Positions 2 through 24,086 of a stretch of DNA of 33,032 bases are shown piece after piece; position 1 is the first letter of the stretch, and every line of letters begins with the position of its first letter. The stretch comes from a virus (taxonomy: Duplodnaviria; Heunggongvirae; Uroviricota; Caudoviricetes). The stretch lies in IMG/VR virus record IMGVR_UViG_3300032018_000003. One strand, written 5' to 3'. The notes under the pieces were generated by a model. That model saw only the letters and a list, made by a program, of their open reading frames with translations. It did no database searches and was not told the origin of the DNA. Made by a program: the position numbers and the translations under genes.

Positions 2-871
2 GCAAATGGGCAAACAACTCCTTTGGTATATATCACATTTCAATTATCTGACACATTATCGCAATATCCGGTTGCAGGGCTTTATATTAGTAGATATATT
101 AATACTACATACGCAACAATAACTGCTGATTATACTGATATAGAGAATAAAGTAGCGTCTTATTTAGTACAGAACGTTTATTACAATGTAGATTTATATT
201 CGAATGGAGTATTAGCGAAAAATTTAGGGCAATATGATGCTGATGTAACTGGTACGAAGATATTGACTTTGTTTGGTATTACTATTACTCCATACGTAAC
301 TGGAATTAATACACCACACGTATTTTTTCAAGCATCAAACGCTACCGGGTTATTGATTATAAACGGAACTTTTATTGACCCTAGTAATACTACAACATCA
401 ATAAGATTTGAATTGTATAATGGGACAATAAAAAATTCGACGTTTTTAATCAATTCACAAGTAATAAATGCAGCAACCGGATTTTTCACATATGATGCAA
501 CAGCATATTTTTATGATGAGATTGATGCAAGATTTTCATATATACAATCAACACAACCAACAATAACACAAACTATTGGTGGTGACGTTGTATGGTATTT
601 AACTGGTATATGGGTATTTCCATTAATGACTTTTATTGGACCATTAGCATTACATATCGCAATAATGATATTATTAATAGTATTAACATTATACGCAACA
701 ACAGGAAATGTTGCAGAAATATCTATGGTGGCTTCGTTTTTAGGATTGGTGTTTACTATTATGGGTTGGTTGGATACACGATTAATGCCAGTAATGGCAG
801 TTTTATGTATAATGAATGGTATTAGTATATTTAAAAAAGGAAATAAACGCGCGGATGTGATGGGACAATGA
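2..871 (+). CDS. 5'-truncated membrane-anchored protein, probable virion/envelope component
   Basis: Frame is open from base 2, so the gene likely starts upstream of the window. N/T/Y-rich ectodomain with sequons (NTT, NAT, NGT, NST) followed by about three C-terminal hydrophobic segments. Confidence 0.6.
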   Translation, partial: ANGQTTPLVYITFQLSDTLSQYPVAGLYISRYINTTYATITADYTDIENKVASYLVQNVYYNVDLYSNGVLAKNLGQYDADVTGTKILTLFGITITPYVTGINTPHVFFQASNATGLLIINGTFIDPSNTTTSIRFELYNGTIKNSTFLINSQVINAATGFFTYDATAYFYDEIDARFSYIQSTQPTITQTIGGDVVWYLTGIWVFPLMTFIGPLALHIAIMILLIVLTLYATTGNVAEISMVASFLGLVFTIMGWLDTRLMPVMAVLCIMNGISIFKKGNKRADVMGQ

Positions 872-4339: not shown

Positions 4340-4570
4340 ATGGTAAGACGGACAGTTGTCACAACAAACAACAAAGAAATATACGATAAATTGATTTCTC
4401 TTAATTTTAAGAACGAAACGTTCTTTTCTAATTTTAAATATGGCGCACAGATAGGTAGAATACTTAAAAATATTAATAGTACTCCAGGAACGTTAGATGT
4501 ACAAAAAATTAATAATGGTATTCTTGTCAAGAAAATAAAACCTATTAATTATGACGTTTATCTAAAATAG
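4340..4570 (+). CDS. Hypothetical protein (76 aa)
   Basis: ATG ORF in the same orientation filling the intergenic space. Confidence 0.55.
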   Translation: MVRRTVVTTNNKEIYDKLISLNFKNETFFSNFKYGAQIGRILKNINSTPGTLDVQKINNGILVKKIKPINYDVYLK

Positions 4571-4599: not shown

Positions 4600-4618
4600 A
4601 AACAAATATATATATAAA
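4600..4618 (+). promoter_or_regulatory. BRE+TATA promoter of the putative major capsid gene
   Basis: AAACAAATATATATATAAA upstream of 4697. Confidence 0.65.
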
Positions 4619-4696
4619 TCTAAATGAACACCATTATATTATGAGTTGATATAATGTATCGATTCAGAGAAAACACAACAAGGAGGTTGATGTCAA

Positions 4697-4921
4697 ATGT
4701 TTATGGAAATAGCAATTGGAGCTATTGGTATTGGAATTGTACTAATGGTAGGATATTTAGTAATCGCACAAGTAAGAGCAGCTTTACCAACATCAGGATT
4801 AAATGAATCTGTTACTGCCGGTATGAATAGTACTCAAGCAACAGTATTCGCAGGATTCGGATTAGTAGCAGTTGGAATAATCGTTCTAGCAGCTTTCGGA
4901 TTGATAAATATTTTCAAGTAA
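4697..4921 (+). CDS. Putative major capsid protein, spindle-shaped-virus-like hydrophobic helical hairpin
   Basis: 74 aa with two hydrophobic helices joined by a polar loop carrying sequons NES and NST. IGIVLMVGYLVIAQV resembles fusellovirus VP1 IGIVLLPVIVSQV. Own promoter, strong GGAGG SD and own terminator. Confidence 0.5.
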   Translation: MFMEIAIGAIGIGIVLMVGYLVIAQVRAALPTSGLNESVTAGMNSTQATVFAGFGLVAVGIIVLAAFGLINIFK

Positions 4922-4934
4922 GTAATTACTTGAA

Positions 4935-4961
4935 TTTTTTTTTTATTTTAGATTATTTTTT
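4935..4961 (+). terminator. Oligo-T terminator
   Basis: T10 run plus further T tracts just after the 4697..4921 stop. Confidence 0.6.
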
Positions 4962-5014: not shown

Positions 5015-5389
5015 ATGTTTAAATTAGTGGGCAAATATTTAACATCATCTACTATAGCAACACTTATCGATTGGTTAATATTTTATATATTATCTACATG
5101 TACTGGATTATTATATATAATAAGTTATATAATATCTTTTGGTACAGGGTTTATTGTTAAATTTATACTAAACAAAGAATTTACATTTGTAATAAAAGAA
5201 TATAATAAGAAAATGTTTCTTTCGTATTGTTTAGTTAATGTGGGTACATTTATATTGGGCGCAATATTAATGTGGTTGTTTGTTGATGTTATACACCTTG
5301 TTAGTTTTACTGGTAGAGTATGGACAACTATAATAGTATTTATATATAATTTTCTAATGGATAAAAAATTTGTGTTTGTGAAAAAATGA
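5015..5389 (+). CDS. gtrA: GtrA-family lipid-phosphate-sugar flippase
   Basis: 124 aa, four TM segments, typical termini KYLTSSTIATLIDW...FILNKEFTF...NFLMDKKFVF. Confidence 0.85.
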   Translation: MFKLVGKYLTSSTIATLIDWLIFYILSTCTGLLYIISYIISFGTGFIVKFILNKEFTFVIKEYNKKMFLSYCLVNVGTFILGAILMWLFVDVIHLVSFTGRVWTTIIVFIYNFLMDKKFVFVKK

Positions 5390-5760
5390 AAAAACTTGAT
5401 AAACTAGGAAGAACATACAAAGGACATTCAAGAGCAATGTTTGAACGATATTGTGTTGTATGTAATACTTTTTTTAGAACAAGAGTGCAACGAAAACTAA
5501 CTTGTACAGTCCCGTGTTCAAATAAAAGAAAAGTAAATTCTATAAAAAGAAAACGTACAGAATATTATAAAACGTTTGTTGAACTTCGCAATAGAGGAAG
5601 ACTTTTATTAGACACTATGTTAAAACAAAAATATAAACATTTATACGAGGTAGTAAAAGAACGTCCTTCAGGAAGAATGTATATTAATAATAAAACATTA
5701 ACTGAATGGAAAGAACATTTAGATATGTTTGAAAAGGAGTTGCAAAATGAAAATTCCTGA
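5386..5760 (+). CDS. Basic zinc-finger protein
   Basis: CVVC...CTVPC motif; ATGA overlap with gtrA. Confidence 0.55.
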   Translation: MKKLDKLGRTYKGHSRAMFERYCVVCNTFFRTRVQRKLTCTVPCSNKRKVNSIKRKRTEYYKTFVELRNRGRLLLDTMLKQKYKHLYEVVKERPSGRMYINNKTLTEWKEHLDMFEKELQNENS

Positions 5761-6460
5761 ACTATCTATAGTGATCCCGTGTTATAATGAAGAAAAGAGA
5801 TTGGATAAAAACTTTTATGTTATTTATAATTACTGTCTAAAAAATATTAAAAAGTTTGAAATAATTCTTGTAGATGATGGTTCTACGGACAGCACACCAT
5901 TTATGATGATGAAACATCATGATAAAAATATAAAATTTATTACATATACAAAAAATATGGGTAAAGGATATGCCGTTAAACAAGGTATAATGAGAGCACA
6001 ATATAAACACGTTTTGTTTATGGATATAGATAGTGCAACACCAATAAATGAAATAGAAAAACTATATCCATATGTAAATAAATATAATGTTGTTATTGGT
6101 AGTAGAGAAATTGAAGATAGTAATATTATTGTACAACAACCTATCAGTAGAAAAGTTATGGGTTGGGTATTTAGAAAAATGTATTATATTATATTAGGAT
6201 TAAAAATTAGAGATACTCAAAATGGATTTAAGTTGTTTGAAACATCGACTGCGCAATTCTTATTTAGCCAATTAACTACTAACAGATGGGCATTTGATAT
6301 AGAGATATTATACTTATATATACATAGAGTTTTTCCTAGTTGTAAAATAAAAGAAGTTGGTATTACATGGATTAATGATAAAGACTCACGTGTCAATCCA
6401 ATAAAAGACGGAATACAAATGTTTATTGCATTATTACAGATAAGGTTTAGACATGGATAA
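5747..6460 (+). CDS. GT2 dolichyl/polyprenyl-phosphate glucosyltransferase (ALG5/AglJ-like)
   Basis: SIVIPCYNEEKRL, VDDGSTD, NMGKGYAV, DxD (DID), DTQNGFKLF, WAFDIEIL motifs. ATG at 5747 follows AAGGAG. Confidence 0.85.
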   Translation: MKIPELSIVIPCYNEEKRLDKNFYVIYNYCLKNIKKFEIILVDDGSTDSTPFMMMKHHDKNIKFITYTKNMGKGYAVKQGIMRAQYKHVLFMDIDSATPINEIEKLYPYVNKYNVVIGSREIEDSNIIVQQPISRKVMGWVFRKMYYIILGLKIRDTQNGFKLFETSTAQFLFSQLTTNRWAFDIEILYLYIHRVFPSCKIKEVGITWINDKDSRVNPIKDGIQMFIALLQIRFRHG

Positions 6461-7631
6461 TAAATTTATTATTACTTGTGTTATTATATTTATAGTTAGT
6501 ATAGTAGGATTCTTATGTATAAAAAATCAAGATCTTTATAGTGATGAATTACCGCATAGTACACAAATAAAATGGTTTGACGAAGAAAATTATTCGATAG
6601 TACCATATTTAACTGTTATTCCCGGGTATCATTTTGTAATTTCTGCATTCACTATACATTTTAAACAAGATACCATACAATTAATACGGTTTACATCGTT
6701 AATTTTATTAATTGGATTGTTGATACCATTATTTTTTAGGTTATCGTTAGACAATAGTATTAAAACATTACAATTATATTTTTTTCCTACATTATTTATA
6801 TTCTTTTTTCTTATTTATACAGACATTTTTAGTGCAATATTAGTTTTATTATCGTATTATTATTTTAAACAGAACAAATATTACATAAGTGGGTTGTTTG
6901 TTTTATTATCGGTATTAGTAAGACAAAACAATGTCGTGTGGTGTGGTTTTTATATATTACTTTTAATTTTAGATTTCAAATTAAAAAATAATTTTGAAAA
7001 TAATTTAAAAATATTTAAAAAAACAATAGTTTATATTATAGGAATTTTGTTTACTGGAGTGTTTATGTTACTAAACCACGGTGGTGTAATAGGAGATAAA
7101 GGAAGTCACCCATTAGCAATACATACAGCAAACATATGGTTTTTATTATTTATGATACCAATATTATTCTTACCGATTTTTTTAGCACGTTTACCAAAAA
7201 TTATAGAATTATTAAAGAACTGGAAGATATGGTTTTTATGTATAGGAATTATGATTTTAGGACTTGGAACTTTTATTAACGATCATATATATAATCAAAA
7301 CACGGTGTTCCTAAAAAATAAATTCTTGGTTTGGGGTACTAGTAATGCTATGAATGAGATAGCTTTTTTTATTATTGTTATTGGTGGATTATTGTTCTTA
7401 ATGACATATAAATGGAATAAAGAACAGATTGTGTTTGGAATATGTACGATACCATATTTGTTAATGAGTTGGATGGTGGATGTAAGATATTATACAATAT
7501 TTTTTATATTTTTTATACTATGGCGACAACAAGAAGATAAACCTATTTTTGAATGGTATCAGTTAATATATTGTATTTTGTTTGCGTTAATAATGTTTTG
7601 GGGAGTATTACAATGGAAGATATTTTGGTAA
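6453..7631 (+). CDS. ALG10/DIE2-like GT-C alpha-glucosyltransferase
   Basis: Multi-TM protein with YSDELPH, TVIPG, FPTLFIFFFLIYTD, RQNNVVW, GGVIGDKGSH, VRYY and terminal FW, colinear with remembered ALG10 motifs (YMDEIFH, TTLPG, FPTLYFFNFLYYTE, RQTNIIW, GGIVIGDRSSH, FRYF, FMW). Confidence 0.8.
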   Translation: MDNKFIITCVIIFIVSIVGFLCIKNQDLYSDELPHSTQIKWFDEENYSIVPYLTVIPGYHFVISAFTIHFKQDTIQLIRFTSLILLIGLLIPLFFRLSLDNSIKTLQLYFFPTLFIFFFLIYTDIFSAILVLLSYYYFKQNKYYISGLFVLLSVLVRQNNVVWCGFYILLLILDFKLKNNFENNLKIFKKTIVYIIGILFTGVFMLLNHGGVIGDKGSHPLAIHTANIWFLLFMIPILFLPIFLARLPKIIELLKNWKIWFLCIGIMILGLGTFINDHIYNQNTVFLKNKFLVWGTSNAMNEIAFFIIVIGGLLFLMTYKWNKEQIVFGICTIPYLLMSWMVDVRYYTIFFIFFILWRQQEDKPIFEWYQLIYCILFALIMFWGVLQWKIFW

Positions 7632-7686: not shown

Positions 7687-8019
7687 ATGTTAATAGAATT
7701 ATATATCTTGTTTGAGATTGCGATGTTAGTATGTTTTACATTTGCTTATTTTACTAAACAAGAATTGTTGTGGTCAATAACTGTGGTATTAGCAGGAGTT
7801 TTAATGTTTTCTAGTCATGCAATAGAATATCATATTGTAGTAGATAACGATGTAGTTGTTAAGATATACGATTTGATGTATATGGTAAGTATAAATTTTC
7901 TATTTATGTTATTAGCAACAATATTGTTTTTGTTCGATTTGTTTGAGAAATATGGTATAGAACTAATGTGTAAATTTTTTAAGAAAAAAGATGGAATAAA
8001 TAACAAAGTATATAAGTAA
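7687..8019 (+). CDS. Small three-TM membrane protein, paralog of 11881..12192
   Basis: MLIELYILFEI...KQELLWSITVVLA aligns with MIIELFIFFEI...RKELLWALTLVLS. Confidence 0.7.
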   Translation: MLIELYILFEIAMLVCFTFAYFTKQELLWSITVVLAGVLMFSSHAIEYHIVVDNDVVVKIYDLMYMVSINFLFMLLATILFLFDLFEKYGIELMCKFFKKKDGINNKVYK

Positions 8020-8077: not shown

Positions 8078-8746
8078 ATGGAATCGTTTGAACAATTCAT
8101 TAAAAATCAAGAAAATGAAGAGAATTCTCAAAAAAGAGTAATAGATCACATTAAACCACCAAATTTTCAAGAAGTGTTTAATGGCAACAACCAACAAGTA
8201 AGATATCCTGCACAACAGATGGGTGGACAACCCCAACAACAATATCCTGTTCAGCAATCTCAACAACGTTCTCTACAACAAATGCAGGATCCGTTCCAGA
8301 TGGCAGCTTACCAGAATGTTAATGTTCCGAACACCCCAATAAGTTATGGTGGGGGAATGGCGGATTCTTTACTAAACAATAGTGAGATACCACAAGAAAT
8401 AATGGAGAAGTATTGGGCGTTTGTGCATAAGGACAATGTTCTTTCGTTCCAGGATGTAATAACCAAAAATGAAAAACTTATTAATTTCGATATTGTTAAA
8501 GTAGATTTACTTACCAATACACCATATTACGATTATGATTTTAAGATGGAACTTGAGTTTAATACTATGCGACACGTATTAGATACTAAATTAGATAGAG
8601 CCAAAGGATTCAGTACTGGCGGTAAACCATTAAACGAACGTATAATTTTACAATCACAGTTTTCTGAAAATAGAAATATTAATGAGAACAACGATTCTGA
8701 TATAAAAACGGGCTTTTTCAAAAGATTGTTAGGGCGCAAAAATTAG
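8078..8746 (+). CDS. Hypothetical protein with Q-rich disordered N-terminus
   Basis: 222 aa; QQ/PQ-rich first half and globular-looking second half. Confidence 0.7.
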   Translation: MESFEQFIKNQENEENSQKRVIDHIKPPNFQEVFNGNNQQVRYPAQQMGGQPQQQYPVQQSQQRSLQQMQDPFQMAAYQNVNVPNTPISYGGGMADSLLNNSEIPQEIMEKYWAFVHKDNVLSFQDVITKNEKLINFDIVKVDLLTNTPYYDYDFKMELEFNTMRHVLDTKLDRAKGFSTGGKPLNERIILQSQFSENRNINENNDSDIKTGFFKRLLGRKN

Positions 8747-8839
8747 TATTGTCTAGTGACAAAATGAAAAAAATAAATAAATGGAATTATTGGAATAAAA
8801 AAAATTAGGATTAAGAAAGTAAATTATGAGGTATAAATT

Positions 8840-9535
8840 ATGGCAGGATTAGCATTACCAGCAGTGCCCCAGATGGGCGGAATATTAACAAACGTTTATT
8901 TATGGATAGGTGCAACGTTATTCTTTTTATTATTGTTCGGAATATTATTAATATTTGTAATAATGATGGCAAAGAAAACACACGCGATAATAGAGTTTAA
9001 AGCGTGGATGACAGGTAAGCCAATAGCTTTGTTTTTTTCAGAGAACAGAAATGTTGTATGGCGACCAGTTAAAGCAGAAGCCGGGATAATCGACGATGAA
9101 GAGTTTGGGGCATTTATTATTAATGAACGTGCTACATATGTTGATAGAACTACCCGTAATGTTATAATTCCGTTTGATACGAGTGTCGCGCCTAGTATTA
9201 ATGTTCACGCAGCTAAATTAATGGATGATTTACAATATATTGTTAAAGATGAGGAAGAAATGAAAAAGTTCAGATATGCTATCGCACATAACATGATGGA
9301 CGAGAATGCTAGTATTGATAGTGTTAGAACAAGTATACATTTTGGTGCAGTTAAAAGTATGATGACTTCTATGATTCCTCATAGTATAAGTGCAAAAATA
9401 GAGATGGTAATTGCACAACGTCTTAAAGGTGTAGGAAAAATAAATATCATGCAAGCCCTTTTTGTATTTGCCGCCTTCCTTGGGGCTATTATAATAGGAG
9501 CATTAATAGTAAAAATGATGGGGAAAAATAAATAG
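8840..9535 (+). CDS. Membrane protein with N- and C-terminal TM helices
   Basis: SD GAGGT; hydrophobic segments at both ends around a soluble domain. Confidence 0.7.
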   Translation: MAGLALPAVPQMGGILTNVYLWIGATLFFLLLFGILLIFVIMMAKKTHAIIEFKAWMTGKPIALFFSENRNVVWRPVKAEAGIIDDEEFGAFIINERATYVDRTTRNVIIPFDTSVAPSINVHAAKLMDDLQYIVKDEEEMKKFRYAIAHNMMDENASIDSVRTSIHFGAVKSMMTSMIPHSISAKIEMVIAQRLKGVGKINIMQALFVFAAFLGAIIIGALIVKMMGKNK

Positions 9536-9546
9536 GAGTGATATAG

Positions 9547-9996
9547 ATGACGAATGAATTATTAACATACAATTATTTAATGGATTTAAAGAAAAAAGAA
9601 ATTGACCCGGTAGCACGGGCAACTATAATAACAGATTATCTTAAAGCAACAAACAAATCGCAACGCCAATTAGCAAAAGACATCGGTATGCCGTATAGTA
9701 CAATACGAGATTGGTGTTTGTTTAGTAAAGTAACAAAAGAAGAATACGACAATATTAAAAGTACCGGATTAACGGACACAGATATATATAGAGAATTAAG
9801 AAATAATAGTTGTAAAAGTAAAAAAGATTTGTTTAAATTTAATAAAATTCAATTAGAATTAAATGAGGCTATTAAAAATTTAGATGGATGTAAACGAGAA
9901 GTTGATAATACCGCAACCACTAAAGAACTTATTGTTAAATTACAAAATATATTGAATATAATGTTAATGTACAATGAAAAGAAAGCTAAGGTATAA
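9547..9996 (+). CDS. Helix-turn-helix protein (ParB/KorB-like HTH, no catalytic domain)
   Basis: IDPVARATIITDYL...KSQRQLAKDIGMPYSTIRDW, followed by a coiled coil. Confidence 0.65.
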   Translation: MTNELLTYNYLMDLKKKEIDPVARATIITDYLKATNKSQRQLAKDIGMPYSTIRDWCLFSKVTKEEYDNIKSTGLTDTDIYRELRNNSCKSKKDLFKFNKIQLELNEAIKNLDGCKREVDNTATTKELIVKLQNILNIMLMYNEKKAKV

Positions 9997-9999
9997 ATA

Positions 10000-10680
10000 A
10001 TGGCACTACCAGGAGCACCGTCTGCCGGATATAAATTTAACAACGCACAAGAGATTAAGTCGCATTCTTCAGTATTATACAACGAAAGAATGGCAATATT
10101 ATTATATCTGCTTGATATGAAAAGTATGCAGATGAATAAATCGTATTCATTAGAAGATATTCAAGACGTTAGATCAACACTATACCAAATATATAAAAAC
10201 ATAAGAATGTTGATTAGGTTCAATCCTGTAATGAGAGTTACAATGAACCTAGAAACTAAAGATAATGGAATTTATGTTACAGATTTAATGTTTAATACTG
10301 TAGACAAAATGATAGAATATTGCGAACAGTTCGGGTATACATTAAAAAGATTATATATTATTACACAAGAAATTAATAGAACTGAACTTGTCATCAAAGA
10401 TATGTTGCAATATTATCATTATTTCATAAGACCTGACTTTAAACAAAAACCTGACATTGAGGTAGCAACAGAAAAATATAAAGAAATGGCAGATAAGAAA
10501 ACTGTTGAAGAACTACGTTCATTGGTAGGAATGAAACACCACGTAGATTTTGATGGGTTTGGTAGTCAACGAATAGAAATGAAAGAAGTTGATGTAGCAG
10601 ATTTGGAAATAGAAGAAAAATCAGATTACTTAGATGAAGAAAGTGAGGAATTTGAAAATGAAACAAATGAAAAACTTTAA
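10000..10680 (+). CDS. Hypothetical helical protein with acidic tail
   Basis: 226 aa, closely spaced in the operon; C-terminus rich in E/D. Confidence 0.7.
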   Translation: MALPGAPSAGYKFNNAQEIKSHSSVLYNERMAILLYLLDMKSMQMNKSYSLEDIQDVRSTLYQIYKNIRMLIRFNPVMRVTMNLETKDNGIYVTDLMFNTVDKMIEYCEQFGYTLKRLYIITQEINRTELVIKDMLQYYHYFIRPDFKQKPDIEVATEKYKEMADKKTVEELRSLVGMKHHVDFDGFGSQRIEMKEVDVADLEIEEKSDYLDEESEEFENETNEKL

Positions 10681-10912
10681 GGTTACAGGTAACGAATATC
10701 TAGATATATATGTGTTTTTGAAAGAACATACTGGAGAACAGTTTACGAAAAAAGAATTGATTAAAATGTCTAAATATTGCGAAACCCCAGTAGATACAGC
10801 ATTAAAAAATTTAGCTGTACGAAGACTTATAATTAAAGATAGAGACAACGCAGGGTCAAGAGTTACTTGGTTATACCACCATAGTAAAATTTGCGATAAT
10901 ATGGAAGATTAA
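10658..10912 (+). CDS. Winged-HTH DNA-binding protein
   Basis: ATG at 10658 after GAGG; DIYVFLKEH-FTKKELIKM-VDTALKNLAVRRLI-TWLY pattern. Confidence 0.55.
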   Translation: MKQMKNFKVTGNEYLDIYVFLKEHTGEQFTKKELIKMSKYCETPVDTALKNLAVRRLIIKDRDNAGSRVTWLYHHSKICDNMED

Positions 10913-11826
10913 TGAAATCACACATTACAGACCCAGCTATGTTTGGGTTGTGGTTAGATAGTCATAAACAATTATCAGAAAGTACTAGAACCATGTATAT
11001 TAGTTCTCTTATATCTTTTCTTAAAAAAAATCCAGAAATAGATAAACTTGATACATATAACGAGTTTATTATAAAAACATGTATAAAGAAACGTAGTACA
11101 CATTTTTATACAGTTCTACACGATTATATAACTTTTAAGATAGAAGACGCTTCGTTAAGAAGAGTATTATTAGATGGGTTAATACGACCAGACATAAAAA
11201 TGGATATTTTTAGAGAACGAAAATATATATCAGAAGAGAAAATAATAGACGTTATAAATAATCTAGCCGATATTAAACATCGAACTATTGCACTTATTCA
11301 ATCAATGACCGGTGTTCGAGCTGGAGATATAATGAGACTTAAAAAAGGTCTTATTATGCCAGAAGAGTATGAAGGTAAACCTGTATTAAAACTCAGTTTA
11401 ACTGGGAAAAGAAAGAAACGTAATGTTGTTTTTATACACGACGAAGTCGCACAATCTCTTATTATGTATTATATTACTGAAGTTCTGCCTAGCCGAAGTA
11501 CGTTTGACGAATACTATTTTATAGATTTCGGTAGTAGAAATAAACGTCGTGGGGATATAACAAACCATTTTAAGATGTATAAAATGAATTATAATTGGTA
11601 TTGGGGCGATCTTAAACAAGCGCTTGAAAATAGTGGTGTAGACAAAGATATGTTTGCGACACACGATTTCCGTAGATGTTTTGCGCGTAGGGCATGGGAA
11701 CGATATAAAGACATACACGTATTACAAAGTTTACTTAGTCACCAGGATCCTAAAACTACACTTAGATATTTAACCCAAAGTGGGTTAAGAAATATTGATT
11801 ATCATAAGGATATGCAAACGCAATAA
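10912..11826 (+). CDS. Tyrosine recombinase / integrase
   Basis: Catalytic set GVRAGD (R), GKRKK (K), HDFRR (HxxR), LLSH, TLRY (Y). Confidence 0.9.
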   Translation: MKSHITDPAMFGLWLDSHKQLSESTRTMYISSLISFLKKNPEIDKLDTYNEFIIKTCIKKRSTHFYTVLHDYITFKIEDASLRRVLLDGLIRPDIKMDIFRERKYISEEKIIDVINNLADIKHRTIALIQSMTGVRAGDIMRLKKGLIMPEEYEGKPVLKLSLTGKRKKRNVVFIHDEVAQSLIMYYITEVLPSRSTFDEYYFIDFGSRNKRRGDITNHFKMYKMNYNWYWGDLKQALENSGVDKDMFATHDFRRCFARRAWERYKDIHVLQSLLSHQDPKTTLRYLTQSGLRNIDYHKDMQTQ

Positions 11827-11880: not shown

Positions 11881-12192
11881 ATGATAATTGAACTCTTTAT
11901 ATTCTTCGAGATTGTCACTGTCGGGTTGTTTGTACTTTCTTTCTATGAAAGAAAAGAACTTCTGTGGGCACTAACCTTAGTATTATCTGCAATAATGGCA
12001 ATTAATAGTTTTTTTGTAGAGAAAACATATTATATATTTAATGGTAGTACTGCATATGTACCAACAGTAATATCTAACTCTTACCCTTATATAGCAACAA
12101 TAAACATTTTATTTTTCTCATTGTCTATGTTGTTTATGTTATATGGTATTTTCGCAAATAGATTAGAAAAAAAGCAAGAAGAAGGATTCTAA
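11881..12192 (+). CDS. Small three-TM membrane protein, paralog of 7687..8019
   Basis: Shared N-terminal motif and INxLF motif. Confidence 0.7.
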   Translation: MIIELFIFFEIVTVGLFVLSFYERKELLWALTLVLSAIMAINSFFVEKTYYIFNGSTAYVPTVISNSYPYIATINILFFSLSMLFMLYGIFANRLEKKQEEGF

Positions 12193-14310
12193 GTGGTGTT
12201 AAATGTGCATAAAAAAACACATATATTGGTTGGTTTTATAATGGGTATGCTATGTTTAGGTTTGATAGGTTGTGAAACCGGAATGCCTCCGGGGAATATT
12301 AATATAAACAATACTTTTAATAATGCCACGATTGTATATAATACAACAAACATTAATATAACAAATGTGTATAACATAACAAACATATCAAACTATTATA
12401 ATATAACAGGTACAACGGTCGGCGGAAACAATTCACAAATTCAGTTTAATGATAATGGTAATTTAAGTGGTGATATTGGGTTTACATATAATAAAACATC
12501 TAAAACTGGATATATTAATGGTTCTATAATATGTACATTAAATGGTAGTGTTTGTAATTTAACTGGTCCGCAAGGGCCAAAAGGAGAAAAAGGAGACCCC
12601 GGTACTCCAGGATTACCAGGAAGTAATGGTATAGACGGTATTAACGGAACAAATGGTATTAACGGAACAAATGGTATTAACGGAACAAATGGTATTAACG
12701 GAACAAATGGTATTAACGGAACAAACGGAGCAAGTTATAACCAATCTCTTAATACTACGGATAATGTTCAATTTAATAATGTAACCGCTAATAATTTTAT
12801 TGGACATATAAATGCTTCTTATGTAGACAATGCCCCGTGGGGAACAGGAAGTTCTAACGTCAATATGTCTAACATTTATAATAAAACAGAAATTGATGAA
12901 CAACAACAATCACAAAACGATACAATTATTGCAAACAATAATTCTGCTGCGCAAAAACTAACTTCTGTTGATTGTGGTTCAGAATATTTGTACAATGTCA
13001 CATTTAATGGTAGTTATAAATGTCGTCCCGCTGGAACTGGTAGTGGTGCAAGTTATAACCAATCTCTTAATACTTCTGATAATGTGATGTTTAATAACGT
13101 CACCGCAGCAAATTTTATAGGGCACATTAACGCGTCATATGTAGACAACGCACCTTGGGGTACCGGTTCAGGAAATGGTTCCAGCGATGGTAACTATTCG
13201 CAATATACAAACATATCAAACTTACCAGTTAATACTACAACACTAAAAACAACTGATGGTTTTTTAGATATAGTATTATCATTTTTTACAGATTTGTTTT
13301 ATACCAAACCTGAAGTGTATAATACGTCGCAAATAGACAATAAACTACCTACTTGTCCTCCGGGACAATATCCAAACGGTGGCGTGTGTTCCACTCCCGC
13401 AGGTGCGGGTGGAGTTGTTAATAATTTAGCCGCAACAACTCTTATAACAACAACTACAACAACACAAAATATTGATAGTAGATTGTTTTCCAATATGGCA
13501 GCAACAATGTTTTTTAGTTACAATAGTTATTATAACCAATGCTTATTAGACAACACAACTTTAATTCGTGATATTAATAATATCACAAGCGTAAATCAAA
13601 CGTGGCTTAATAATACAATACAGAATTATCCTTTTAATAATGTTTCATACTTTAAATTTTTAAATAATATTAATATGACAGATAATAATATAACAAGAGT
13701 ATCTAACATTAATCCAATGGGTAGTCCTTTAACTATTGGTGGTAATGTTACTATTAATAATAATGTTTACGTAGGTAATATAACATATCTCGACACTTAT
13801 TGGGATGATGTAGCAACTCCAGGAACTAGTTTTGCAAATGGAATAAATGCACCAACAATGACAGATTGGAACGATACTATAATTCGTATTCCTTGTTTTG
13901 CAGGTTCAGTACAAAACGATTTTGTTTATGGTTCTTTTGAATTACCTCATAGTTGGAAAGAAGGTAGTGAAGCAGAAATGCACGTTCATAGTGCTAAATC
14001 AACAACTGCAGTAGGCAACTATACTTTTAATCTTCGATATTTAATAATGAATGTAAGTGGTGGATACTCTAAATATGGAGAAACAAACATTACTGTAATA
14101 ACAGGAGATAAATGGGTAGATGTGCTTAGTGATTTAACTGTAACTAATATTGATATGTCTGGTTTTGCAACAGGAACACAAGTTTCATTTAGATTTGAAA
14201 GAGAACAAAATGACCCACTTGATAATTATGGTGATTGTGTTGGTGTAAAACAAATATCAATGCATTTTCAATCTGATAGTCCAGGAAGTAGAACAGAATA
14301 CGTAAAATAA
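12193..14310 (+). CDS. Secreted/lipid-anchored surface glycoprotein with collagen-like segment (fibre/spike candidate)
   Basis: Signal peptide ending LGLIGC (lipobox-like), seven NxS/T sequons in about 40 aa near the N-terminus, GPQGPKGEKGDPG collagen segment, GINGTN repeats, and a 41-aa internal duplication. Confidence 0.7.
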   Translation: MVLNVHKKTHILVGFIMGMLCLGLIGCETGMPPGNININNTFNNATIVYNTTNINITNVYNITNISNYYNITGTTVGGNNSQIQFNDNGNLSGDIGFTYNKTSKTGYINGSIICTLNGSVCNLTGPQGPKGEKGDPGTPGLPGSNGIDGINGTNGINGTNGINGTNGINGTNGINGTNGASYNQSLNTTDNVQFNNVTANNFIGHINASYVDNAPWGTGSSNVNMSNIYNKTEIDEQQQSQNDTIIANNNSAAQKLTSVDCGSEYLYNVTFNGSYKCRPAGTGSGASYNQSLNTSDNVMFNNVTAANFIGHINASYVDNAPWGTGSGNGSSDGNYSQYTNISNLPVNTTTLKTTDGFLDIVLSFFTDLFYTKPEVYNTSQIDNKLPTCPPGQYPNGGVCSTPAGAGGVVNNLAATTLITTTTTTQNIDSRLFSNMAATMFFSYNSYYNQCLLDNTTLIRDINNITSVNQTWLNNTIQNYPFNNVSYFKFLNNINMTDNNITRVSNINPMGSPLTIGGNVTINNNVYVGNITYLDTYWDDVATPGTSFANGINAPTMTDWNDTIIRIPCFAGSVQNDFVYGSFELPHSWKEGSEAEMHVHSAKSTTAVGNYTFNLRYLIMNVSGGYSKYGETNITVITGDKWVDVLSDLTVTNIDMSGFATGTQVSFRFEREQNDPLDNYGDCVGVKQISMHFQSDSPGSRTEYVK
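12637..12726 (+). repeat. 18-bp coding tandem repeat x5 (GGTATTAACGGAACAAAT = GINGTN)
   Basis: Four perfect copies plus a fifth with a terminal T>C change. Confidence 0.95.
12727..13167 (+). repeat. 123-bp in-frame direct duplication (12727..12849 and 13045..13167)
   Basis: 38 of 41 amino acids identical (GASYNQSLNT...YVDNAPWGTG). Confidence 0.9.
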
Positions 14311-14318: not shown

Positions 14319-17300
14319 ATGAAAAAAATAATACTATTTTTAATATTCATTTGTTGTATGAGTTATATATTTGCAGATACTACTATTTCTGTATGTACTT
14401 ATAACGTAACTACTTCTGGTAAATATAATTTAACTGCAACTTTGACTTGTCCTGTAAATGCTATTAATGTAAAAGTATCAGATGTAGAAATTAATTGTCT
14501 TGGTAATACTATAAATTTTGGTTCAGGTGGTGCAGCAAATACAAATGGTATTTATGCAATTAATACAACAGTTACAGCAAAATCTAATTTAACAATTAAA
14601 AATTGTATAATATCAAGAAACTCAACAGTGTTAGCAAACAATTACGGAATTTTCTTAGCAAACTTTTCATCTTCATATATTTTCAATAATACAATTAGTA
14701 CAAATGGTACAACAGATAATTATGGTATTTATATCATTCAATCAGATTATACTAGAATTGATGGAAATATATTAAGAGCAAAAGGTTCAACAACAAATAA
14801 TTATGGTATCTTTGTTGCTAGAGGGAATGATTACGTTAATATAACATCTAATACTATAACATCAGCAGGTACAACAGGTTCAACAGATATATTTTTCGCA
14901 GTAGGTACAGAACCGACTTCTAACATATTAGTAAAAGGAAACAATTTACAAGCAAAACTAGGAACAACGGCAGGGTATAATATTTATATTAATGCAAACG
15001 TAACTTCTTTAATTGTAAGAGATAATAATATGTCAGTACTAGCAACAGGTGCAGGAACTGCAGTATCCGTTTATTCTTTAGGAGTAGCTGGTTCTAATAC
15101 TGATAATAATGTTTTCATTAATAATACTCATGATGTAAGAAGTACTGGAGCAGGTACTAATTATATTTATCAATTTGGTGGTAATAATAATTTTAATAAT
15201 ATTACCGATAATACTGGATTTGTAAACGGCACAGCCTCAGTATCAGCAGTTTATGGAATAGGAACAGCAGTACTTCCAATTTATAATATTAATATTTTAA
15301 GAAATAAATTTGATGTTAATTCAACAGTAGCTTCTAATCACGTTATTTATTTAACAGCGAATTTAAATAATACAAACATATCTTATAATAATCTATCTAG
15401 TACAGGTGGTACTACTCCAAATTATGGTGTTTATATTCTTGGTACTACTGCATTAATCGCACAAAACAATGATGTTTCTTATAACAGAATAAACATAACT
15501 GCATCTGGTGCAGATGCAACAGGTATTTTAATTTCTACTAATGCAGATAATAATAACGTAGTTGGGAATACTATTAATGTAGCAGGTACAACTACTTGTG
15601 ACGGAATAAGATTTCTAGGAACTACATTAGTATCAACTGCTAATAATTTTGTAAGTAGCAATACTGTTTATGGACGAGGAACTGGTGGAAGAGGAATACA
15701 TTCCACAATTAATACAGACGGAAATACAATAACTAATAATAATCTTTTCATAGGAAATGCAACATCTTTAACATTAAATCTTGGTGTTTATGTGTTTGGT
15801 TCTACAATGCACTCTAATAATAATATAATTACAGGAAATAATATTAGAACTCTTGGAACGGGAATTACTAATAATGGTATATTTGTATCAACAAATGCCA
15901 GTAATAATTTAATTCAAAATAATATAGTTAATATGACAGCAGGTGGTGCAGGTACTTCTTATGTAATACAAATACTAGGTACTGCAGGATTTCCAGCAGA
16001 TGGAACAATAATAAATAGAAATAATATTACTTGGAATTGTCCTTTACTTTGTATGGGGATATATGCAACTTCTAACGTACATTATATTAATATTACAAAC
16101 AACAAAGTTAGAAATGATAAATTTACAGCAAATGGTGGAAGTACAGGACAAGGAATTTCTGTTGTAGGTTCTACACTAGCAACACTTAATGTTACTGATG
16201 TAAGAATAATAGGAAACGATGTTTTTATTGATGCAAATTCAACAGCAACAACTGTGTATGGTGTTCAAGTATCTACTTCAATAGATAGAGTATTTATTAA
16301 TAATAATGTGATTGTAGTTAATGGTTCATCAGCAGGATATGGTATAATTCATATATCAGCAGTAGCATCACCAGGAAATGATTTTACTATTACATTTAAT
16401 AATATAACTACTTATGGAACAGCAGGTTCTAATAATGCTATTTTGTTTTCAACTACTTTAAGTAGATTTACTATAAATGATAACATTATTAACGCAGGTA
16501 TAGGTGGAACTACTTTAAATAGAGGTATAATGGGGACAGGTCTTGCTAACACAACAATAGGTCCGGGATATATTCAAAGAAACAAAATTTATACTTATGG
16601 TTCTGGAATTACTAATGATGCAGTTTATTTAGCTACATCATATAGTAATGTAAATATAACAGATAATTTATTGATTGCACAAGGTTCATCTACCAATGGA
16701 ATTGTAGTTACTGGTGTTGCACTTGGTAATATGGAAAATTATACAATCATTAATAATATAATTAATGTTACAAATAATACGGCACTTGGAACAAATGTAG
16801 GAATAAATTTAATTTCAGCTATATATAATCATTATGTGTATAATAACACTATAAGAGTTTATGGTACTACTTCAAATAAAGGAATTATAATTATAGGTGT
16901 TGCAGCACTTCCAGTTAATAATAATATCATTGATAGTAATAATGTTGGTGTTTATACTCCATTAGCAGGTGGAGCAACAACTTACGGAATAGAATTATCT
17001 GCGATGTGTGATAATAATAGAGTTACTAATAATATAATAGACGCAACAGGTACAGCAACTTTATCTGGAATACATTTACTTAGTGCAGTTACAACACCTT
17101 GTAATTATAATGTTATTGATAGAAATAATATTACTATGGTTGGTGGAACAACTGGTAACTATGGAATATACGAATCTAACACTTGGCATTATTCTAATAT
17201 AACAAACAATAGACTTAATTTAAACGCAGGTACTACTGGTCCAATAGGAATAGTTATGCTAGGAATTGAAGGTGACCCGTCAATAGATAATAATATTGTA

Positions 17301-18971
17301 GAAAATAATAATATTCAAGTTTATAGCGGAACAACTACAACTTATGGAATATCAATGTCTACAAACATTCAAAATAATATAGTAAGATATAACAATTTTA
17401 ATATTAGTGCAGACACAGAAGCAACAGGATTTTATTTTATTGGTGTTGCTGATGGGGACACTAATAACAACTTAATAACTTTTAATAATTTTACTTCTAC
17501 AGTAACAGGTTCTGCTGGAATGGGTGGAATTATGGGATATACAATGGATAACAATACAGTATCTAATAATAGATTTATTATAAATGATAAAACTATTGGC
17601 TGGGGAATAGAAATAATATCTTCATCAGCAAATGATATGGGTACTAATTATATTAACGATAATTATATTTGGGTAAATTCAAGTGGAAATGGTAATACTG
17701 TTAGAGGTATTTATGGAATTGCCAATGTTAATAATTTTGAGATTTATAATAATAACATAATAGTTTATACAAACAAAACATCAGAAGGTATTTATTTTAT
17801 TGGTTCTACTAATCCAGTTACAGATAATAAAATTTATAATAATTCAATAGTAATAGAAGGACCACAAACAGGTGCTGCAGCAGTTACTGGATTAGTTGGA
17901 ATAAGATTAAACATTGGGGTTAATGGTAATAATATATCAAATAATTACATTTCAACAAAAGGTAGAGCAGCAGGATATGGTGTTAATATTATAACTTCTG
18001 GTGACAATATAGTTTATAATAACAAAATTGTAACTATGGATACAACAAATACTAGTGCAGCAATTTATATTGTAGGTAATTCTAAAAGAAGTATAATAGA
18101 AAATAATCTTATTGATGACGCGGATGGAAGTGCTTTTAGATTAGATTACGTAGGTTTCCCACCAGACGATACTATAATTAAAGGTAACACAATAAACAAT
18201 GTTAGTATGTTTGATTTGTATGTAGTAAATACTGCAATTAAAAGTATAGATAATCTACAAATCATAAATCAACATTTAAACGATTATAATTTCACGTTAA
18301 GTGGTACAAGTAACTTAATTATAGAAAATACAAGTACAGGTAAAATACAATTCTCACAAAATATAATTGGTTATGGTGTAAATTTATCAAACAGAATAAG
18401 ACTAGGACCTAATAATCTTAGCATAGATACTTCTGATGGCGTAATAATTTGGAATAAATCCGCAACACTAACTTTTTATAATGTGCCTAGTTTATCATCT
18501 CCTGCAGCATATAGAGATGGAGAACTGTGTACTGGAGGTATCTGTGGAACATTAACTTATTTAGGTAATAATGTATATACATATACAGTTACAGGCTGGA
18601 GTAGTTATTCAGTATCACAAGATTTTGGTATCTTTAAAACACCTTGTACTATTTGTCATACACTTCAATGTTTAGCTACTTTTAATACAAACAGTAATAC
18701 TACTTGTATAGAATTTGATTACATATTAACTAACTTAGAAACAACATTTAAGATGGGTGGAAACGCAGGACTAGTTATGAACACTACAGCTTGTGACCCA
18801 GGAACTAGTATAGCAGTATCATCAGGTGGTAATTTATGTGATTGGATGAGAGGAGTTATTGATTCAAGACATGCAACATTATCCAATACTAGTTTAAATA
18901 GAACATCAACTTATATGGGTGGAATTGCTAATAATACAATCAACTCAACAACAATAATAGTGACGGGGTAA
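14319..18971 (+). CDS. Large secreted right-handed parallel beta-helix (pectin-lyase-like) protein, probable adhesin/receptor-binding protein
   Basis: Signal peptide MKKIILFLIFICC; many repeats of the type GIxx...xNxIxxNxI; very rich in N, T and G. Confidence 0.75.
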   Translation: MKKIILFLIFICCMSYIFADTTISVCTYNVTTSGKYNLTATLTCPVNAINVKVSDVEINCLGNTINFGSGGAANTNGIYAINTTVTAKSNLTIKNCIISRNSTVLANNYGIFLANFSSSYIFNNTISTNGTTDNYGIYIIQSDYTRIDGNILRAKGSTTNNYGIFVARGNDYVNITSNTITSAGTTGSTDIFFAVGTEPTSNILVKGNNLQAKLGTTAGYNIYINANVTSLIVRDNNMSVLATGAGTAVSVYSLGVAGSNTDNNVFINNTHDVRSTGAGTNYIYQFGGNNNFNNITDNTGFVNGTASVSAVYGIGTAVLPIYNINILRNKFDVNSTVASNHVIYLTANLNNTNISYNNLSSTGGTTPNYGVYILGTTALIAQNNDVSYNRINITASGADATGILISTNADNNNVVGNTINVAGTTTCDGIRFLGTTLVSTANNFVSSNTVYGRGTGGRGIHSTINTDGNTITNNNLFIGNATSLTLNLGVYVFGSTMHSNNNIITGNNIRTLGTGITNNGIFVSTNASNNLIQNNIVNMTAGGAGTSYVIQILGTAGFPADGTIINRNNITWNCPLLCMGIYATSNVHYINITNNKVRNDKFTANGGSTGQGISVVGSTLATLNVTDVRIIGNDVFIDANSTATTVYGVQVSTSIDRVFINNNVIVVNGSSAGYGIIHISAVASPGNDFTITFNNITTYGTAGSNNAILFSTTLSRFTINDNIINAGIGGTTLNRGIMGTGLANTTIGPGYIQRNKIYTYGSGITNDAVYLATSYSNVNITDNLLIAQGSSTNGIVVTGVALGNMENYTIINNIINVTNNTALGTNVGINLISAIYNHYVYNNTIRVYGTTSNKGIIIIGVAALPVNNNIIDSNNVGVYTPLAGGATTYGIELSAMCDNNRVTNNIIDATGTATLSGIHLLSAVTTPCNYNVIDRNNITMVGGTTGNYGIYESNTWHYSNITNNRLNLNAGTTGPIGIVMLGIEGDPSIDNNIVENNNIQVYSGTTTTYGISMSTNIQNNIVRYNNFNISADTEATGFYFIGVADGDTNNNLITFNNFTSTVTGSAGMGGIMGYTMDNNTVSNNRFIINDKTIGWGIEIISSSANDMGTNYINDNYIWVNSSGNGNTVRGIYGIANVNNFEIYNNNIIVYTNKTSEGIYFIGSTNPVTDNKIYNNSIVIEGPQTGAAAVTGLVGIRLNIGVNGNNISNNYISTKGRAAGYGVNIITSGDNIVYNNKIVTMDTTNTSAAIYIVGNSKRSIIENNLIDDADGSAFRLDYVGFPPDDTIIKGNTINNVSMFDLYVVNTAIKSIDNLQIINQHLNDYNFTLSGTSNLIIENTSTGKIQFSQNIIGYGVNLSNRIRLGPNNLSIDTSDGVIIWNKSATLTFYNVPSLSSPAAYRDGELCTGGICGTLTYLGNNVYTYTVTGWSSYSVSQDFGIFKTPCTICHTLQCLATFNTNSNTTCIEFDYILTNLETTFKMGGNAGLVMNTTACDPGTSIAVSSGGNLCDWMRGVIDSRHATLSNTSLNRTSTYMGGIANNTINSTTIIVTG

Positions 18972-22649: not shown

Positions 22650-22714
22650 AAAATTTCTACAATTTTTATATAACCCTTATTAAAATTTTCTAACAATAAC
22701 GGTTATAACCATAT

Positions 22715-22788
22715 ACAGCGATACAAAATTGGATTTTTGGAGTGGCTCATAACCATTATAAGAGAAGGTTCGATTCCTTCTCGCTGTA
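22715..22788 (+). tRNA. tRNA-Met(CAT)
   Basis: ACAGCGA/TCGCTGT acceptor; AGTGG-CTCATAA-CCATT; TTCGATT T-loop. Confidence 0.85.
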
Positions 22789-22802
22789 TTTTTTATTATT
22801 AT

Positions 22803-22873
22803 GGCTATGTAATATAAAGGTATTATATCTGACTGTTAATCAGAAAATATGGGTTCGATTCCTATCGTAGCCG
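22803..22873 (+). tRNA. tRNA-Asn(GTT)
   Basis: GGCTATG/CGTAGCC; TCTGA-CTGTTAA-TCAGA; G73. Confidence 0.85.
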
Positions 22874-22876
22874 TAT

Positions 22877-22963
22877 GACAGTATGCCCCGAATCTGGTAA
22901 GGGAATCGTTTGCTAAACGATGTCAGACCTGACAATTGGGTTCAAATCCCAATACTGTCGCCA
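22877..22963 (+). tRNA. tRNA-Ser(GCT)
   Basis: GACAGTA/TACTGTC; long variable arm; G73; encoded CCA. Confidence 0.9.
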
Positions 22964-22964
22964 T

Positions 22965-23048
22965 GCGCGGGTACTAAATTGGAAAATAGAATGGGTTTAG
23001 ACCCCATGTGATAAGTTCACTGTAAGAGTTCGAATCTCTTTCCGTGCA
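22965..23048 (+). tRNA. tRNA-Leu(TAG)
   Basis: GCGCGGG/TCCGTGC; ATGGG-TTTAGAC-CCCAT; long variable arm; A73. Confidence 0.9.
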
Positions 23049-23056
23049 TTAGTTAT

Positions 23057-23183
23057 ACCGGATTGGCAGAGTAGTCAAATGCGGCAGACTTAAGATACGA
23101 TATATCAAACTGCAATCAAGTTTGACTATATGAGTAATCTGTTACCCGTAGGGGTTGCGAGGGTGCAAATCCCTTATCCGGTA
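23057..23183 (+). tRNA. tRNA-Leu(TAA) with 42-nt intron at 37/38 (23095..23136)
   Basis: ACCGGAT/ATCCGGT; GCAGA-CTTAAG|intron|A-TCTGT; canonical BHB motif; long variable arm. Confidence 0.85.
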
Positions 23184-23192
23184 TTTTTATTT

Positions 23193-23277
23193 GGTAAGGT
23201 ACGGAAATGGTAAACCGCTTCCGCTTGAGACGGAATGTTGTGAATAACATACGCAGGTTCGAGCCCTGCCCTTATCG
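23193..23277 (+). tRNA. tRNA-Ser(TGA)
   Basis: GGTAAGG/CCTTATC; TTCCG-CTTGAGA-CGGAA; long variable arm; G73. Confidence 0.9.
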
Positions 23278-23286
23278 TTTAGAAAT

Positions 23287-23362
23287 GTGTCTATAAGCCA
23301 ATTGGTAGACTACCTCGTTTGCACCGAGGACGCTTCGGGTTCGAATCCCGATAGATACACCA
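23287..23362 (+). tRNA. tRNA-Ala(TGC)
   Basis: GTGTCTA/TAGATAC with the G3:U70 identity pair; encoded CCA. Confidence 0.9.
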
Positions 23363-23364
23363 TT

Positions 23365-23437
23365 GTCATCGTAGCTCCAAAGGTAGAGCGGTCGGCCTGT
23401 ACCCGACAGGATAGGGGTTCAAACCCCCTCGATGGCT
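23365..23437 (+). tRNA. tRNA-Thr(TGT)
   Basis: GTCATCG/CGATGGC; GTCGG-CCTGTAC-CCGAC; U73. Confidence 0.9.
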
Positions 23438-23441
23438 TTTC

Positions 23442-23513
23442 GGCTCGTTGGACAAATAGTAAGTCGTTTGGTTGCAACCCAAAAGAATATGCGTGCGAAT
23501 CGCATACGAGTCT
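23442..23513 (+). tRNA. tRNA-Cys(GCA)
   Basis: GGCTCGT/ACGAGTC; TTTGG-TTGCAAC-CCAAA; U73; D-loop AG, T-loop TGCGAAT. Confidence 0.85.
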
Positions 23514-23522
23514 TAATAGAAT

Positions 23523-23537
23523 GACAATATATATAAA
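23523..23537 (+). promoter_or_regulatory. Promoter of tRNA operon 2
   Basis: GACAATATATATAAA, a variant of the recurring motif. Confidence 0.55.
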
Positions 23538-23573
23538 TAAGTTGTTTCATATAGGTATATTATGTTAAACTTA

Positions 23574-23673
23574 AATCATAAACAACAATATTGGAAGGAA
23601 CGAGGCAACTCACAGATAATTAGAGTGATTCCCGGGTTCTTTATAGATAACCAATAGTTACGTTGTTATGATT
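23574..23673 (+). ncRNA. Putative structured RNA, long irregular stem with GNRA hairpin
   Basis: AATCAT.AACAAC/GTTGTTATGATT closing stem, TTGG/CCAA, AAGGAAC/GTTCTTT and GAG-GCAA-CTC. Confidence 0.4.
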
Positions 23674-23772
23674 CAAATTCTATAAAAAAATATTAAATAA
23701 ACAATACCCCACAACATTTGGGTCATAATATATGTAATAATTGGAATTCTATATTGTTTATGTTTAAAAGAT

Positions 23773-23844: not shown

Positions 23845-23853
23845 TTAGAATAT

Positions 23854-23928: not shown

Positions 23929-23933
23929 TTTAT

Positions 23934-24006: not shown

Positions 24007-24008
24007 TT

Positions 24009-24081: not shown

Positions 24082-24086
24082 TATAT

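Follow-up and report, generated by a model that had tools for sequence, protein, structure and literature searches.

A stretch of 33,032 nucleotides (nt) from the virus record IMGVR_UViG_3300032018_000003 in IMG/VR (hereafter 'the window'; ~30% GC, 59 open reading frames (ORFs)) carries, at about 4.7 kb, a small gene for a protein of 74 amino acids (aa) that is predicted to fold as a hairpin of two hydrophobic helices. On balance we favour a role for this hairpin protein as the major (capsid-type) protein of the virion in an archaeal virus that has no tail and whose circular genome measures about 97 kb. By analogy with known archaeal viruses, the lineage is likely to be non-tailed and spindle-shaped, with unusually large, tRNA-rich genomes. 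Rather more tentatively, and with somewhat less than even confidence, the proteins may form a new family of hairpin capsid proteins whose spindle-shaped or otherwise non-icosahedral virions package genomes of 80–125 kb with a near-complete tRNA set. The expression signals of the gene, the retention of a glycosylation site in its loop, its standing as the best-conserved of the shared proteins and the failure to find head–tail genes together indicate that the hairpin protein is probably the main coat protein; its presence in the virion, its glycosylation, the formation of a lattice and the spindle shape are what we infer.

The hairpin protein and its family

AlphaFold2 predicted the 74-aa protein to consist of helices spanning residues 2–29 and 37–72 (predicted local distance difference test, pLDDT, of 85), with a loop that holds two N-x-S/T sequons, NES and NST. 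The model thus agrees with the original prediction, made from the letters of the window, of a two-helix hydrophobic hairpin with two loop sequons. A word-indexed search returned 969 close homologues of 72–79 aa, with 77–93% identity, all of them metagenomic (from sediment, lake and marine samples), whilst an exhaustive profile search returned 129 family representatives at the 50% level. In a set of 25 close homologues the two helices were found to be nearly invariant and rich in small residues, and the loop to be hypervariable in sequence and in length. Indeed, at least one loop sequon is present in 118 of 120 close and in all 35 diverse members of the family, compared with 31% ± 4% (maximum 45%) when loops were shuffled. 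As the sequon shifts its position and yet is almost always kept, there appears to be selection for N-glycosylation of an exposed loop, and such selection would in turn require a host with an N-glycosylation system; the pattern argues for a loop sequon under selection, with glycosylation itself being putative. Within the window, the excess of sequons is greatest in a 705-aa collagen-repeat protein (z = 8.4), followed by the hairpin protein (z = 3.3).

Three large relatives were drawn from IMG/VR for comparison, namely G1 (82.6 kb), G2 (IMGVR_UViG_3300005264_000029, 125 kb) and G3 (116 kb), which together amount to 324 kb. The hairpin protein is the best-conserved protein between the window and G1, at 82% identity against 30–65% for the other shared genes, and it is 74% identical to its G2 counterpart, against 24–40% for the others. 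Between G1 and G2 themselves the hairpin protein is 73% identical, the next best being an ATPase at 55%. The gene occurs in tandem copies in several relatives, with three in G1 and in contig L005 and two in G2 and in contig L001; the window holds one. Variants within the family include members of 96–128 aa with longer, Cys-containing loops, members with N-terminal extensions of 60–240 aa ahead of the hairpin, and large ectodomain proteins that carry family-like helices at their end. Four large proteins (P0190, of 634 aa, P0219, P0222 and P0238) match the family profile near the C-terminus; P0190 is rich in sequons, and its two helices are apparently in swapped order. These large proteins may be spikes inserted in the same lattice. 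Two divergent members, P0245 and P0141, lie on contigs shorter than 1.2 kb.

Expression signals of the hairpin gene

Non-coding DNA surrounds the gene, with 126 nt separating it from the preceding 76-codon gene and 93 nt from the GtrA-like gene behind it (Table 1). Its Shine–Dalgarno (SD) sequence, scored by pairing with the 16S 3′ end, has a duplex energy of −13.1 kcal/mol, which is the highest rank among all 59 ORFs of the window (the runner-up reaches −9.9 kcal/mol), and GGAGGT or a near match is retained upstream of the homologous gene in most of the aligned relatives. Further upstream lies the element AAATATATATATAAA, which is kept in all six aligned relatives that have the intergenic region there, including G1, G2, G3 and contigs L024 and L026. 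It looks as an archaeal TATA-box promoter would, and its conservation marks it as a putative promoter. A scan for sigma-70 promoters gave scores no better than those of shuffled sequences. Downstream, a 7-bp stem is followed by a run of ten T residues, the longest T run on the + strand of the window. The claim that a monocistronic gene has its own promoter, the strongest SD sequence of the window and a T10 terminator has therefore stood up, the promoter as a putative TATA-like element conserved in relatives.

Search for head–tail and other capsid genes

Selected Pfam families were searched in six frames over G1–G3 at an expect value (E) ≤ 1, under which conditions the control genomes gave matches. 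Within these 324 kb no match was obtained to the HK97 capsid family (PF05065) or gp23 (PF07068), to the terminases PF03237, PF17289, PF03354 and PF04466, to the portal family PF04860, or to the capsid family of the nucleocytoplasmic large DNA viruses (NCLDV; PF04451). When G1 ORFs of 90–1400 aa and three further ORFs were compared with Pfam and PHROGs, nothing structural appeared among the families listed, and per-protein PHROG scans of the large G1 ORFs that have no assigned family likewise returned nothing structural. The genome of the window itself was covered over the window plus 19.6 kb on its right. No capsid, terminase or portal family in Pfam or PHROGs is matched by the window, and genes of these kinds are absent from the adjoining 19.6 kb too. 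Besides the replication genes and the giant proteins, all proteins conserved between G1 and G2 are of ~230 aa or less, so that none is large enough to be considered as an HK97 or double jelly-roll capsid protein. The original prediction had noted that no HK97 or jelly-roll capsid gene is recognisable in the window and had called for a search beyond it for an HK97 capsid protein, terminase or portal; the observation holds, and the wider search, over G1–G3 and the 19.6 kb to the right, gave the same outcome.

The ATPase of the relatives

The spindle morphogenetic module has been described as a hydrophobic helical capsid protein, an AAA+ ATPase and an adhesin (bioRxiv 10.1101/2025.02.15.638363; 10.1101/2021.07.29.453957). 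G1, G2 and G3 share a P-loop ATPase of ~350 aa, for which phrog_5484 was the sole PHROG match in the scan of G1 (E = 7e-6, positions 25–230 of 239). The same profile matches SSV1 B251 (2e-103) and His1 ORF16 (6.5e-65), and the G1 and G3 proteins at about 1e-7. Alignment of the ATPase with B251 and ORF16 by hhalign gave a probability of 95.6% (E = 1e-8 over 113 columns), whereas the reversed control reached 0.4%. A single-query search with SSV1 B251 found no match in G1–G3, so that the link is detected by the PHROG profile and hhalign only. Language-model neighbours of the ATPase are labelled Zot/pI, AAA and nSTAND3; Pfam Zot has no match in G1–G3, and the Zot/pI link comes from those neighbours alone. 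Taken at the level of sequence profiles, the ATPase of the relatives may be of the B251/ORF16 type, and hence a second signature gene of spindle-shaped viruses.

In G2 the ATPase is fractured just ahead of Walker B (69667–71746; L043, L044), with the N-terminal part in an open frame of 474 residues and the C-terminal part in a separate frame of 255 residues in another reading frame. The break resembles a 'fractured gene' of the split-intein or HNH type.

Comparison with spindle-shaped viruses

Spindle-shaped viruses are specific to archaea and are believed to be as old as the last archaeal common ancestor; their genomes, known or predicted, range from 11 to 73 kb. The capsid proteins VP1 and VP3 of SSV1 (Fuselloviridae; PF06281; 7xdi is VP1 of SSV19) resemble the hairpin family in several respects: the mature proteins are of ~70–90 aa and consist of two hydrophobic helices, a short exposed loop bears N-x-S/T sequons, Lys or Arg lies at the C-terminus, paralogous major and minor copies stand in tandem, and the precursor is in some cases extended at its N-terminus. 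SSV1 also has an integrase, an adhesin and a B251-type ATPase in its genome. Here, giant proteins with Laminin_G_3, beta-helix and collagen repeats, together with a tyrosine integrase, flank the hairpin gene. The differences are that no sequence similarity to VP1/VP3 is detectable, that genomes of the Fuselloviridae are of 11–24 kb compared with 82–125 kb here, and that the genomes here carry a family B polymerase and clamp loader (in G1), 7-deazaguanine genes and tRNA arrays.

VP21 of His1 (Halspiviridae; PF25665) is a 73-aa protein with two transmembrane (TM) helices, whose small gene likewise stands apart between non-coding stretches, and ORF16 of the same virus is an ATPase in the same PHROG as that of G1 and G3. 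His1 differs in its linear 14.5-kb genome and its protein-primed polymerase, and VP21 has no similarity to the hairpin protein by BLASTP, Pfam or hhalign. The wyrdviruses are similar in that their morphogenetic module combines a soluble AAA+ ATPase of the B251/pI type with an adhesin and with hairpin capsid proteins, either one or two in number, and they too come from sediment and from hosts of low GC content, but their capsid proteins are detectable homologues of that of His1 and their genomes are of ~15–26 kb. Their pairs of capsid proteins, like VP1 and VP3 of SSV1, resemble the tandem paralogues seen here (bioRxiv 10.1101/2021.07.29.453957). The Itzamnaviridae and Tepeuvirus have hydrophobic helical capsid proteins (two in the Itzamnaviridae), genomes with structural and enzymatic arms, an RNA-primed family B polymerase and Que genes. 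Compared by description only, they differ in having genomes of at most 72.6 kb, against 97–125 kb with 17–23 tRNAs and ~30% GC here. The largest spindle virus predicted in the literature searched is Tepeuvirus PBV144, at 72.6 kb (PMC9894754).

Weighing the evidence

A number of results weigh against a virion protein of the spindle type, and the first group concerns homology. The window protein and seven diverse relatives match neither VP1_VP3 (PF06281) nor His1_capsid (PF25665) at E ≤ 10, in the same run in which SSV1 VP1 found PF06281 at 2.4e-19 and His1 VP21 found PF25665 at 1.5e-37. By BLASTP the window protein aligns with SSV1 VP1 only at E > 1 and gives no alignment with His1 VP21 at E ≤ 100, whereas VP1 and VP21 find one another at E = 6e-6. 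Using hhalign, a profile of 35 family sequences scored 16.2 against 11 fusellovirus and His1 capsid proteins (probability 3%), with reversed controls at ~22. Fold searches (Foldseek against PDB and BFVD, the wide VIA search and the Atlas) returned generic hairpins or the family's own clusters, with 7xdi absent among the matches listed; a fold as generic as the helical hairpin makes such searches uninformative. In addition, phmmer and a profile search found no match for the hairpin protein in the PDB, and tblastn and megablast found none in phage records.

Further points concern the ATPase and the search itself. At E ≤ 0.01 the profile phrog_5484 also matches 9 of the 14 cellular genomes used as controls; the ATPase link may therefore hold at the level of a clade and not as orthology. 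The weak tblastn matches of the ATPase are to DnaC-like loaders, and neither the window nor the 19.6 kb on its right yielded a homologue of it. Divergent HK97, terminase and single jelly-roll proteins can escape hidden Markov models, and ~40 kb of the genome, to the left of the window, lie outside the search coverage. The Atlas clusters of the hairpin family are automatically labelled Uroviricota.

Of what had been predicted, the link to SSV1 VP1 or His1 expected from HHpred or Foldseek did not materialise: Pfam gave no match, hhalign scored below its reversed controls and the structural matches were generic hairpins. The proposal of a spindle-virus-like capsid is therefore sustained by the architecture of the protein, the ATPase context and the lack of a head–tail match in the relatives, but not by detectable homology, with virion shape argued from likeness. 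Similarly, the proposed lineage of large spindle-shaped or enveloped archaeal viruses that is as yet undescribed finds support in the large genomes, the lack of head–tail matches and the ATPase, whilst the shape of its virions is again reached by comparison. In all the features legible from sequence and genomic context the hairpin family behaves as a spindle-virus capsid protein would; it is best described as analogous to the spindle capsid proteins and not as a detectable member of them.

The same features could belong to a membrane or envelope protein of a different kind of non-tailed virion, be it pleomorphic and pleolipovirus-like, ovoid, or icosahedral with an internal membrane and a small capsid protein that went unrecognised. 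We regard this as rather unlikely. A hydrophobic hairpin, a selected glycosylation site and the absence of head–tail genes fit an envelope protein equally well, the conserved 222-, 231- and 226-aa proteins have no assigned role, and AAA+ ATPases occur in pleomorphic archaeal viruses too (bioRxiv 10.1101/2025.02.15.638363). However, the extreme conservation of the helices while other structural genes diverge, and the tandem major and minor paralogues, suit the subunit of a lattice better than a lipid anchor. The envelope reading is further disfavoured by the comparison of G1 with G2, which share no conserved soluble protein of capsid size, and by the 222-aa core protein, which AlphaFold predicts to be mostly helical and without a beta-sandwich, albeit at a pLDDT of 45 only.

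Class II holins are proteins of ~70 aa with two TM helices, and the hairpin protein could in principle be a holin, viroporin or superinfection-exclusion factor of a tailed virus (Caudoviricetes) whose hallmark genes are too divergent to detect. The Atlas clusters of both the hairpin family and the ATPase, which are labelled Uroviricota where the phylum is known, would fit. Nevertheless, this is improbable: the relatives gave no match to the terminase or portal families (five searched), to the two HK97-type capsid families or to the NCLDV capsid family, no ORF conserved between G1 and G2 is of the size expected for a capsid protein, portal or terminase, and the large G1 ORFs have no structural PHROG match. 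A holin would not normally be the most conserved gene of a virus, and a selected sequon would be unexpected in it; the hairpin protein ends one residue past helix 2 and lacks the charged C-terminal tail of class II holins, one family member has a BlyA match at E = 0.5 only, and Pfam scans of the window found no lysin family near the gene.

VirB2-type pilins are helical hairpins as well, and a better match to pilins had been named as a ground for abandoning the capsid proposal; the pilin profile T4SS_pilin (PF18895) reached sub-threshold scores only, in 2 of the 35 family members (best E = 0.077; 11–12 bits against a cut-off of 26.6). That the replicon is a plasmid-like or vesicle-transferred element, with the hairpin as a VirB2/Ced-type pilin or a vesicle coat protein, is very improbable, for although it carries an integrase and a large replication module, the pilin matches are far below the cut-off, no transfer ATPase of the VirB4/TraG/HerA type and no relaxase is among the 25/26 Pfam families listed for G1, the relatives, with their terminal repeats, are classed as viral contigs by IMG/VR, and the tRNA arrays, giant sequon-rich fibres and B251-type ATPase are virus-like.

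Gene neighbourhood of the hairpin gene

The features of the window are collected in Table 1.

Table 1. Features of the 33,032-nt window, with positions counted from its first letter
Feature	Position	Strand	Basis or remark
C-terminal end of giant adhesin-like protein	2–871	+	Matches the C-terminal part of a 1556-aa protein of G1
Conserved 76-aa basic protein (pI ~10), directly upstream of the hairpin gene	4340–4570	+	53% identical to its G1 homologue
TATA-like element AAATATATATATAAA(T)	4604–4619	+	Conservation in relatives; putative promoter
Shine–Dalgarno sequence AGGAGGT, 9 nt ahead of ATG	4681–4687	+	Anti-SD duplex energy
74-aa two-helix hydrophobic hairpin protein, candidate major virion/capsid protein	4697–4921	+	Loop sequons at N36 and N43
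Terminator: 7-bp stem (4915–4921/4926–4932), GTAA loop, AA, T10 (4935–4944)	4915–4944	+	Read from the sequence
GtrA/GT2/ALG10-like glycosylation cassette	5015–7631	+	Pfam matches
Conserved multi-TM 110-aa protein	7687–8019	+	Paralogue (103 aa) at 11881–12192
Conserved core block: 222-aa, 231-aa (TM at both ends) and 226-aa proteins, with a helix-turn-helix gene between	8078–10680	+	
Tyrosine integrase	10912–11826	+	PF00589, E = 3e-14; syntenic in relatives
705-aa collagen-repeat protein	12193–14310	+	PF01391; collagen G-x-y run; 50 sequons against 20 expected
1550-aa beta-helix protein	14319–18971	+	PF13229
23 tRNA genes, with an HNH gene inside the array	22714–25518	+	ARAGORN

The giant gene that ends at the left edge of the window carries Laminin_G_3 at the same position in relatives. 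The small basic protein ahead of the hairpin gene is found at the same position in contigs L001, L002 and L005; it resembles VP2 of SSV1 by position and charge only, and it is speculative to regard it as a DNA-binding component of the virion. Directly behind the hairpin gene, the glycosylation cassette is missing at the same position in G1 and is an accessory module inserted there. The core block that follows encodes proteins common to G1 (51–65% identity) and G2 (35–40%); its 222-, 231- and 226-aa proteins have no family match in Pfam and PHROG scans, and the block is likely to be morphogenetic. The two multi-TM paralogues bracket the core block and the integrase, whilst G1 and G2 have one copy each. 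The collagen-repeat protein is likely to be a heavily glycosylated fibre or adhesin, and the beta-helix protein is likely to be an adhesin or a depolymerase-type fibre.

The full tRNA set that had been reported for the window corresponds to the 23 tRNA genes that ARAGORN finds at 22.7–25.5 kb. Among them is a tRNA-Ile with the anticodon UAU (24086–24159), besides a tRNA-Ile with GAU. Decoding by tRNA-Ile UAU is uncommon among cellular organisms; some DPANN and Korarchaeota lineages employ it.

Genome of the window and its relatives

The PTH2 protein of the window is recorded on a contig of 97,032 nt, and an assembly in ENA (ena:ERZ27247706:k141_3839829; 96,932 nt) shows 100% identity in all overlaps that were read. 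The assembly appears to be rotated with respect to the contig of the window, and the rotation suggests that the genome is a circle of about 97 kb. This sibling assembly is identical to the window from 14.7 kb rightwards. For the 205-, 98- and 128-aa proteins of the window, and for the exact hairpin protein, the sibling assembly has no record; the assemblies may differ in the region near the adhesin, or else the index may be incomplete.

Terminal repeats were identified in G1, which is complete (104 nt), and in G2 (87 nt), and both are classed as viral contigs in IMG/VR; G2 has 17 tRNAs and G1 has none. The shared core comprises the 76-aa basic protein, the hairpin protein, a multi-TM protein of ~105 aa, three proteins of ~190–230 aa, a tyrosine integrase and giant adhesin-like proteins. 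Families listed for G1 by Pfam and PHROG include a family B polymerase, a clamp loader, helicases, UDG, a PD-(D/E)XK nuclease, ThiF/JAB and an integrase. G1 also has FolE, QueD, QueE and a TGT/DpdA-like enzyme of the 7-deazaguanine pathway, which point to 7-deazaguanine modification of its DNA, and a DprA-like gene. Contigs L024–L029, of 3–12 kb, carry the hairpin gene within metagenome-assembled genomes (MAGs) of GTDB that are binned in Bacilli, Thermotogaceae, Rhodobacter, Burkholderiales and Clostridia. As these contigs are short and sit in the bins of unrelated bacteria they look mis-binned and give no clue to the host; they are almost certainly viral contamination of those MAG bins.

A model for assembly of the virion

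On the capsid reading, abundant synthesis of the hairpin protein would be secured by a promoter and terminator of its own together with a strong ribosome-binding site. The protein would then enter the host membrane with both ends inside and the short loop outside, where the N-glycosylation machinery of the host would glycosylate the loop, and the viral GtrA/GT2/ALG10-like cassette may modify the loop glycan. The small-residue-rich helices would pack side by side to give a hydrophobic protein lattice around the DNA, which paralogues with longer loops and giant adhesins would join. Assembly or extrusion would be driven by the B251/ORF16-type ATPase seen in the relatives, as has been proposed for spindle-shaped viruses.

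Implications for archaeal viruses

Genomes of 80–125 kb with tRNA arrays and a hairpin capsid candidate were not found to be described in the literature searched (the DPANN viruses of Wu, Liu and Ni 2024 not covered). What is new would be a capsid-type sequence family and a class of genome size on the spindle plan, with morphology drawn from analogy. If this is true, a scalable spindle lattice carries far more DNA than has been known, in what are possibly the largest viruses built on the spindle plan, and there exists a widespread, undescribed lineage of archaeal viruses of high rank. Such genomes hold replication genes, genes for 7-deazaguanine DNA modification, glycosylation cassettes and near-full tRNA sets, so that a genome complexity of the 'jumbo' type would have evolved outside the head–tail and nucleocytoplasmic lineages. 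The hairpin family would provide a simple marker for a lineage that is now mis-binned in bacterial MAGs and automatically labelled as tailed phage, and its strictly kept but mobile sequon would offer a tractable system for the study of virion glycosylation in archaea.
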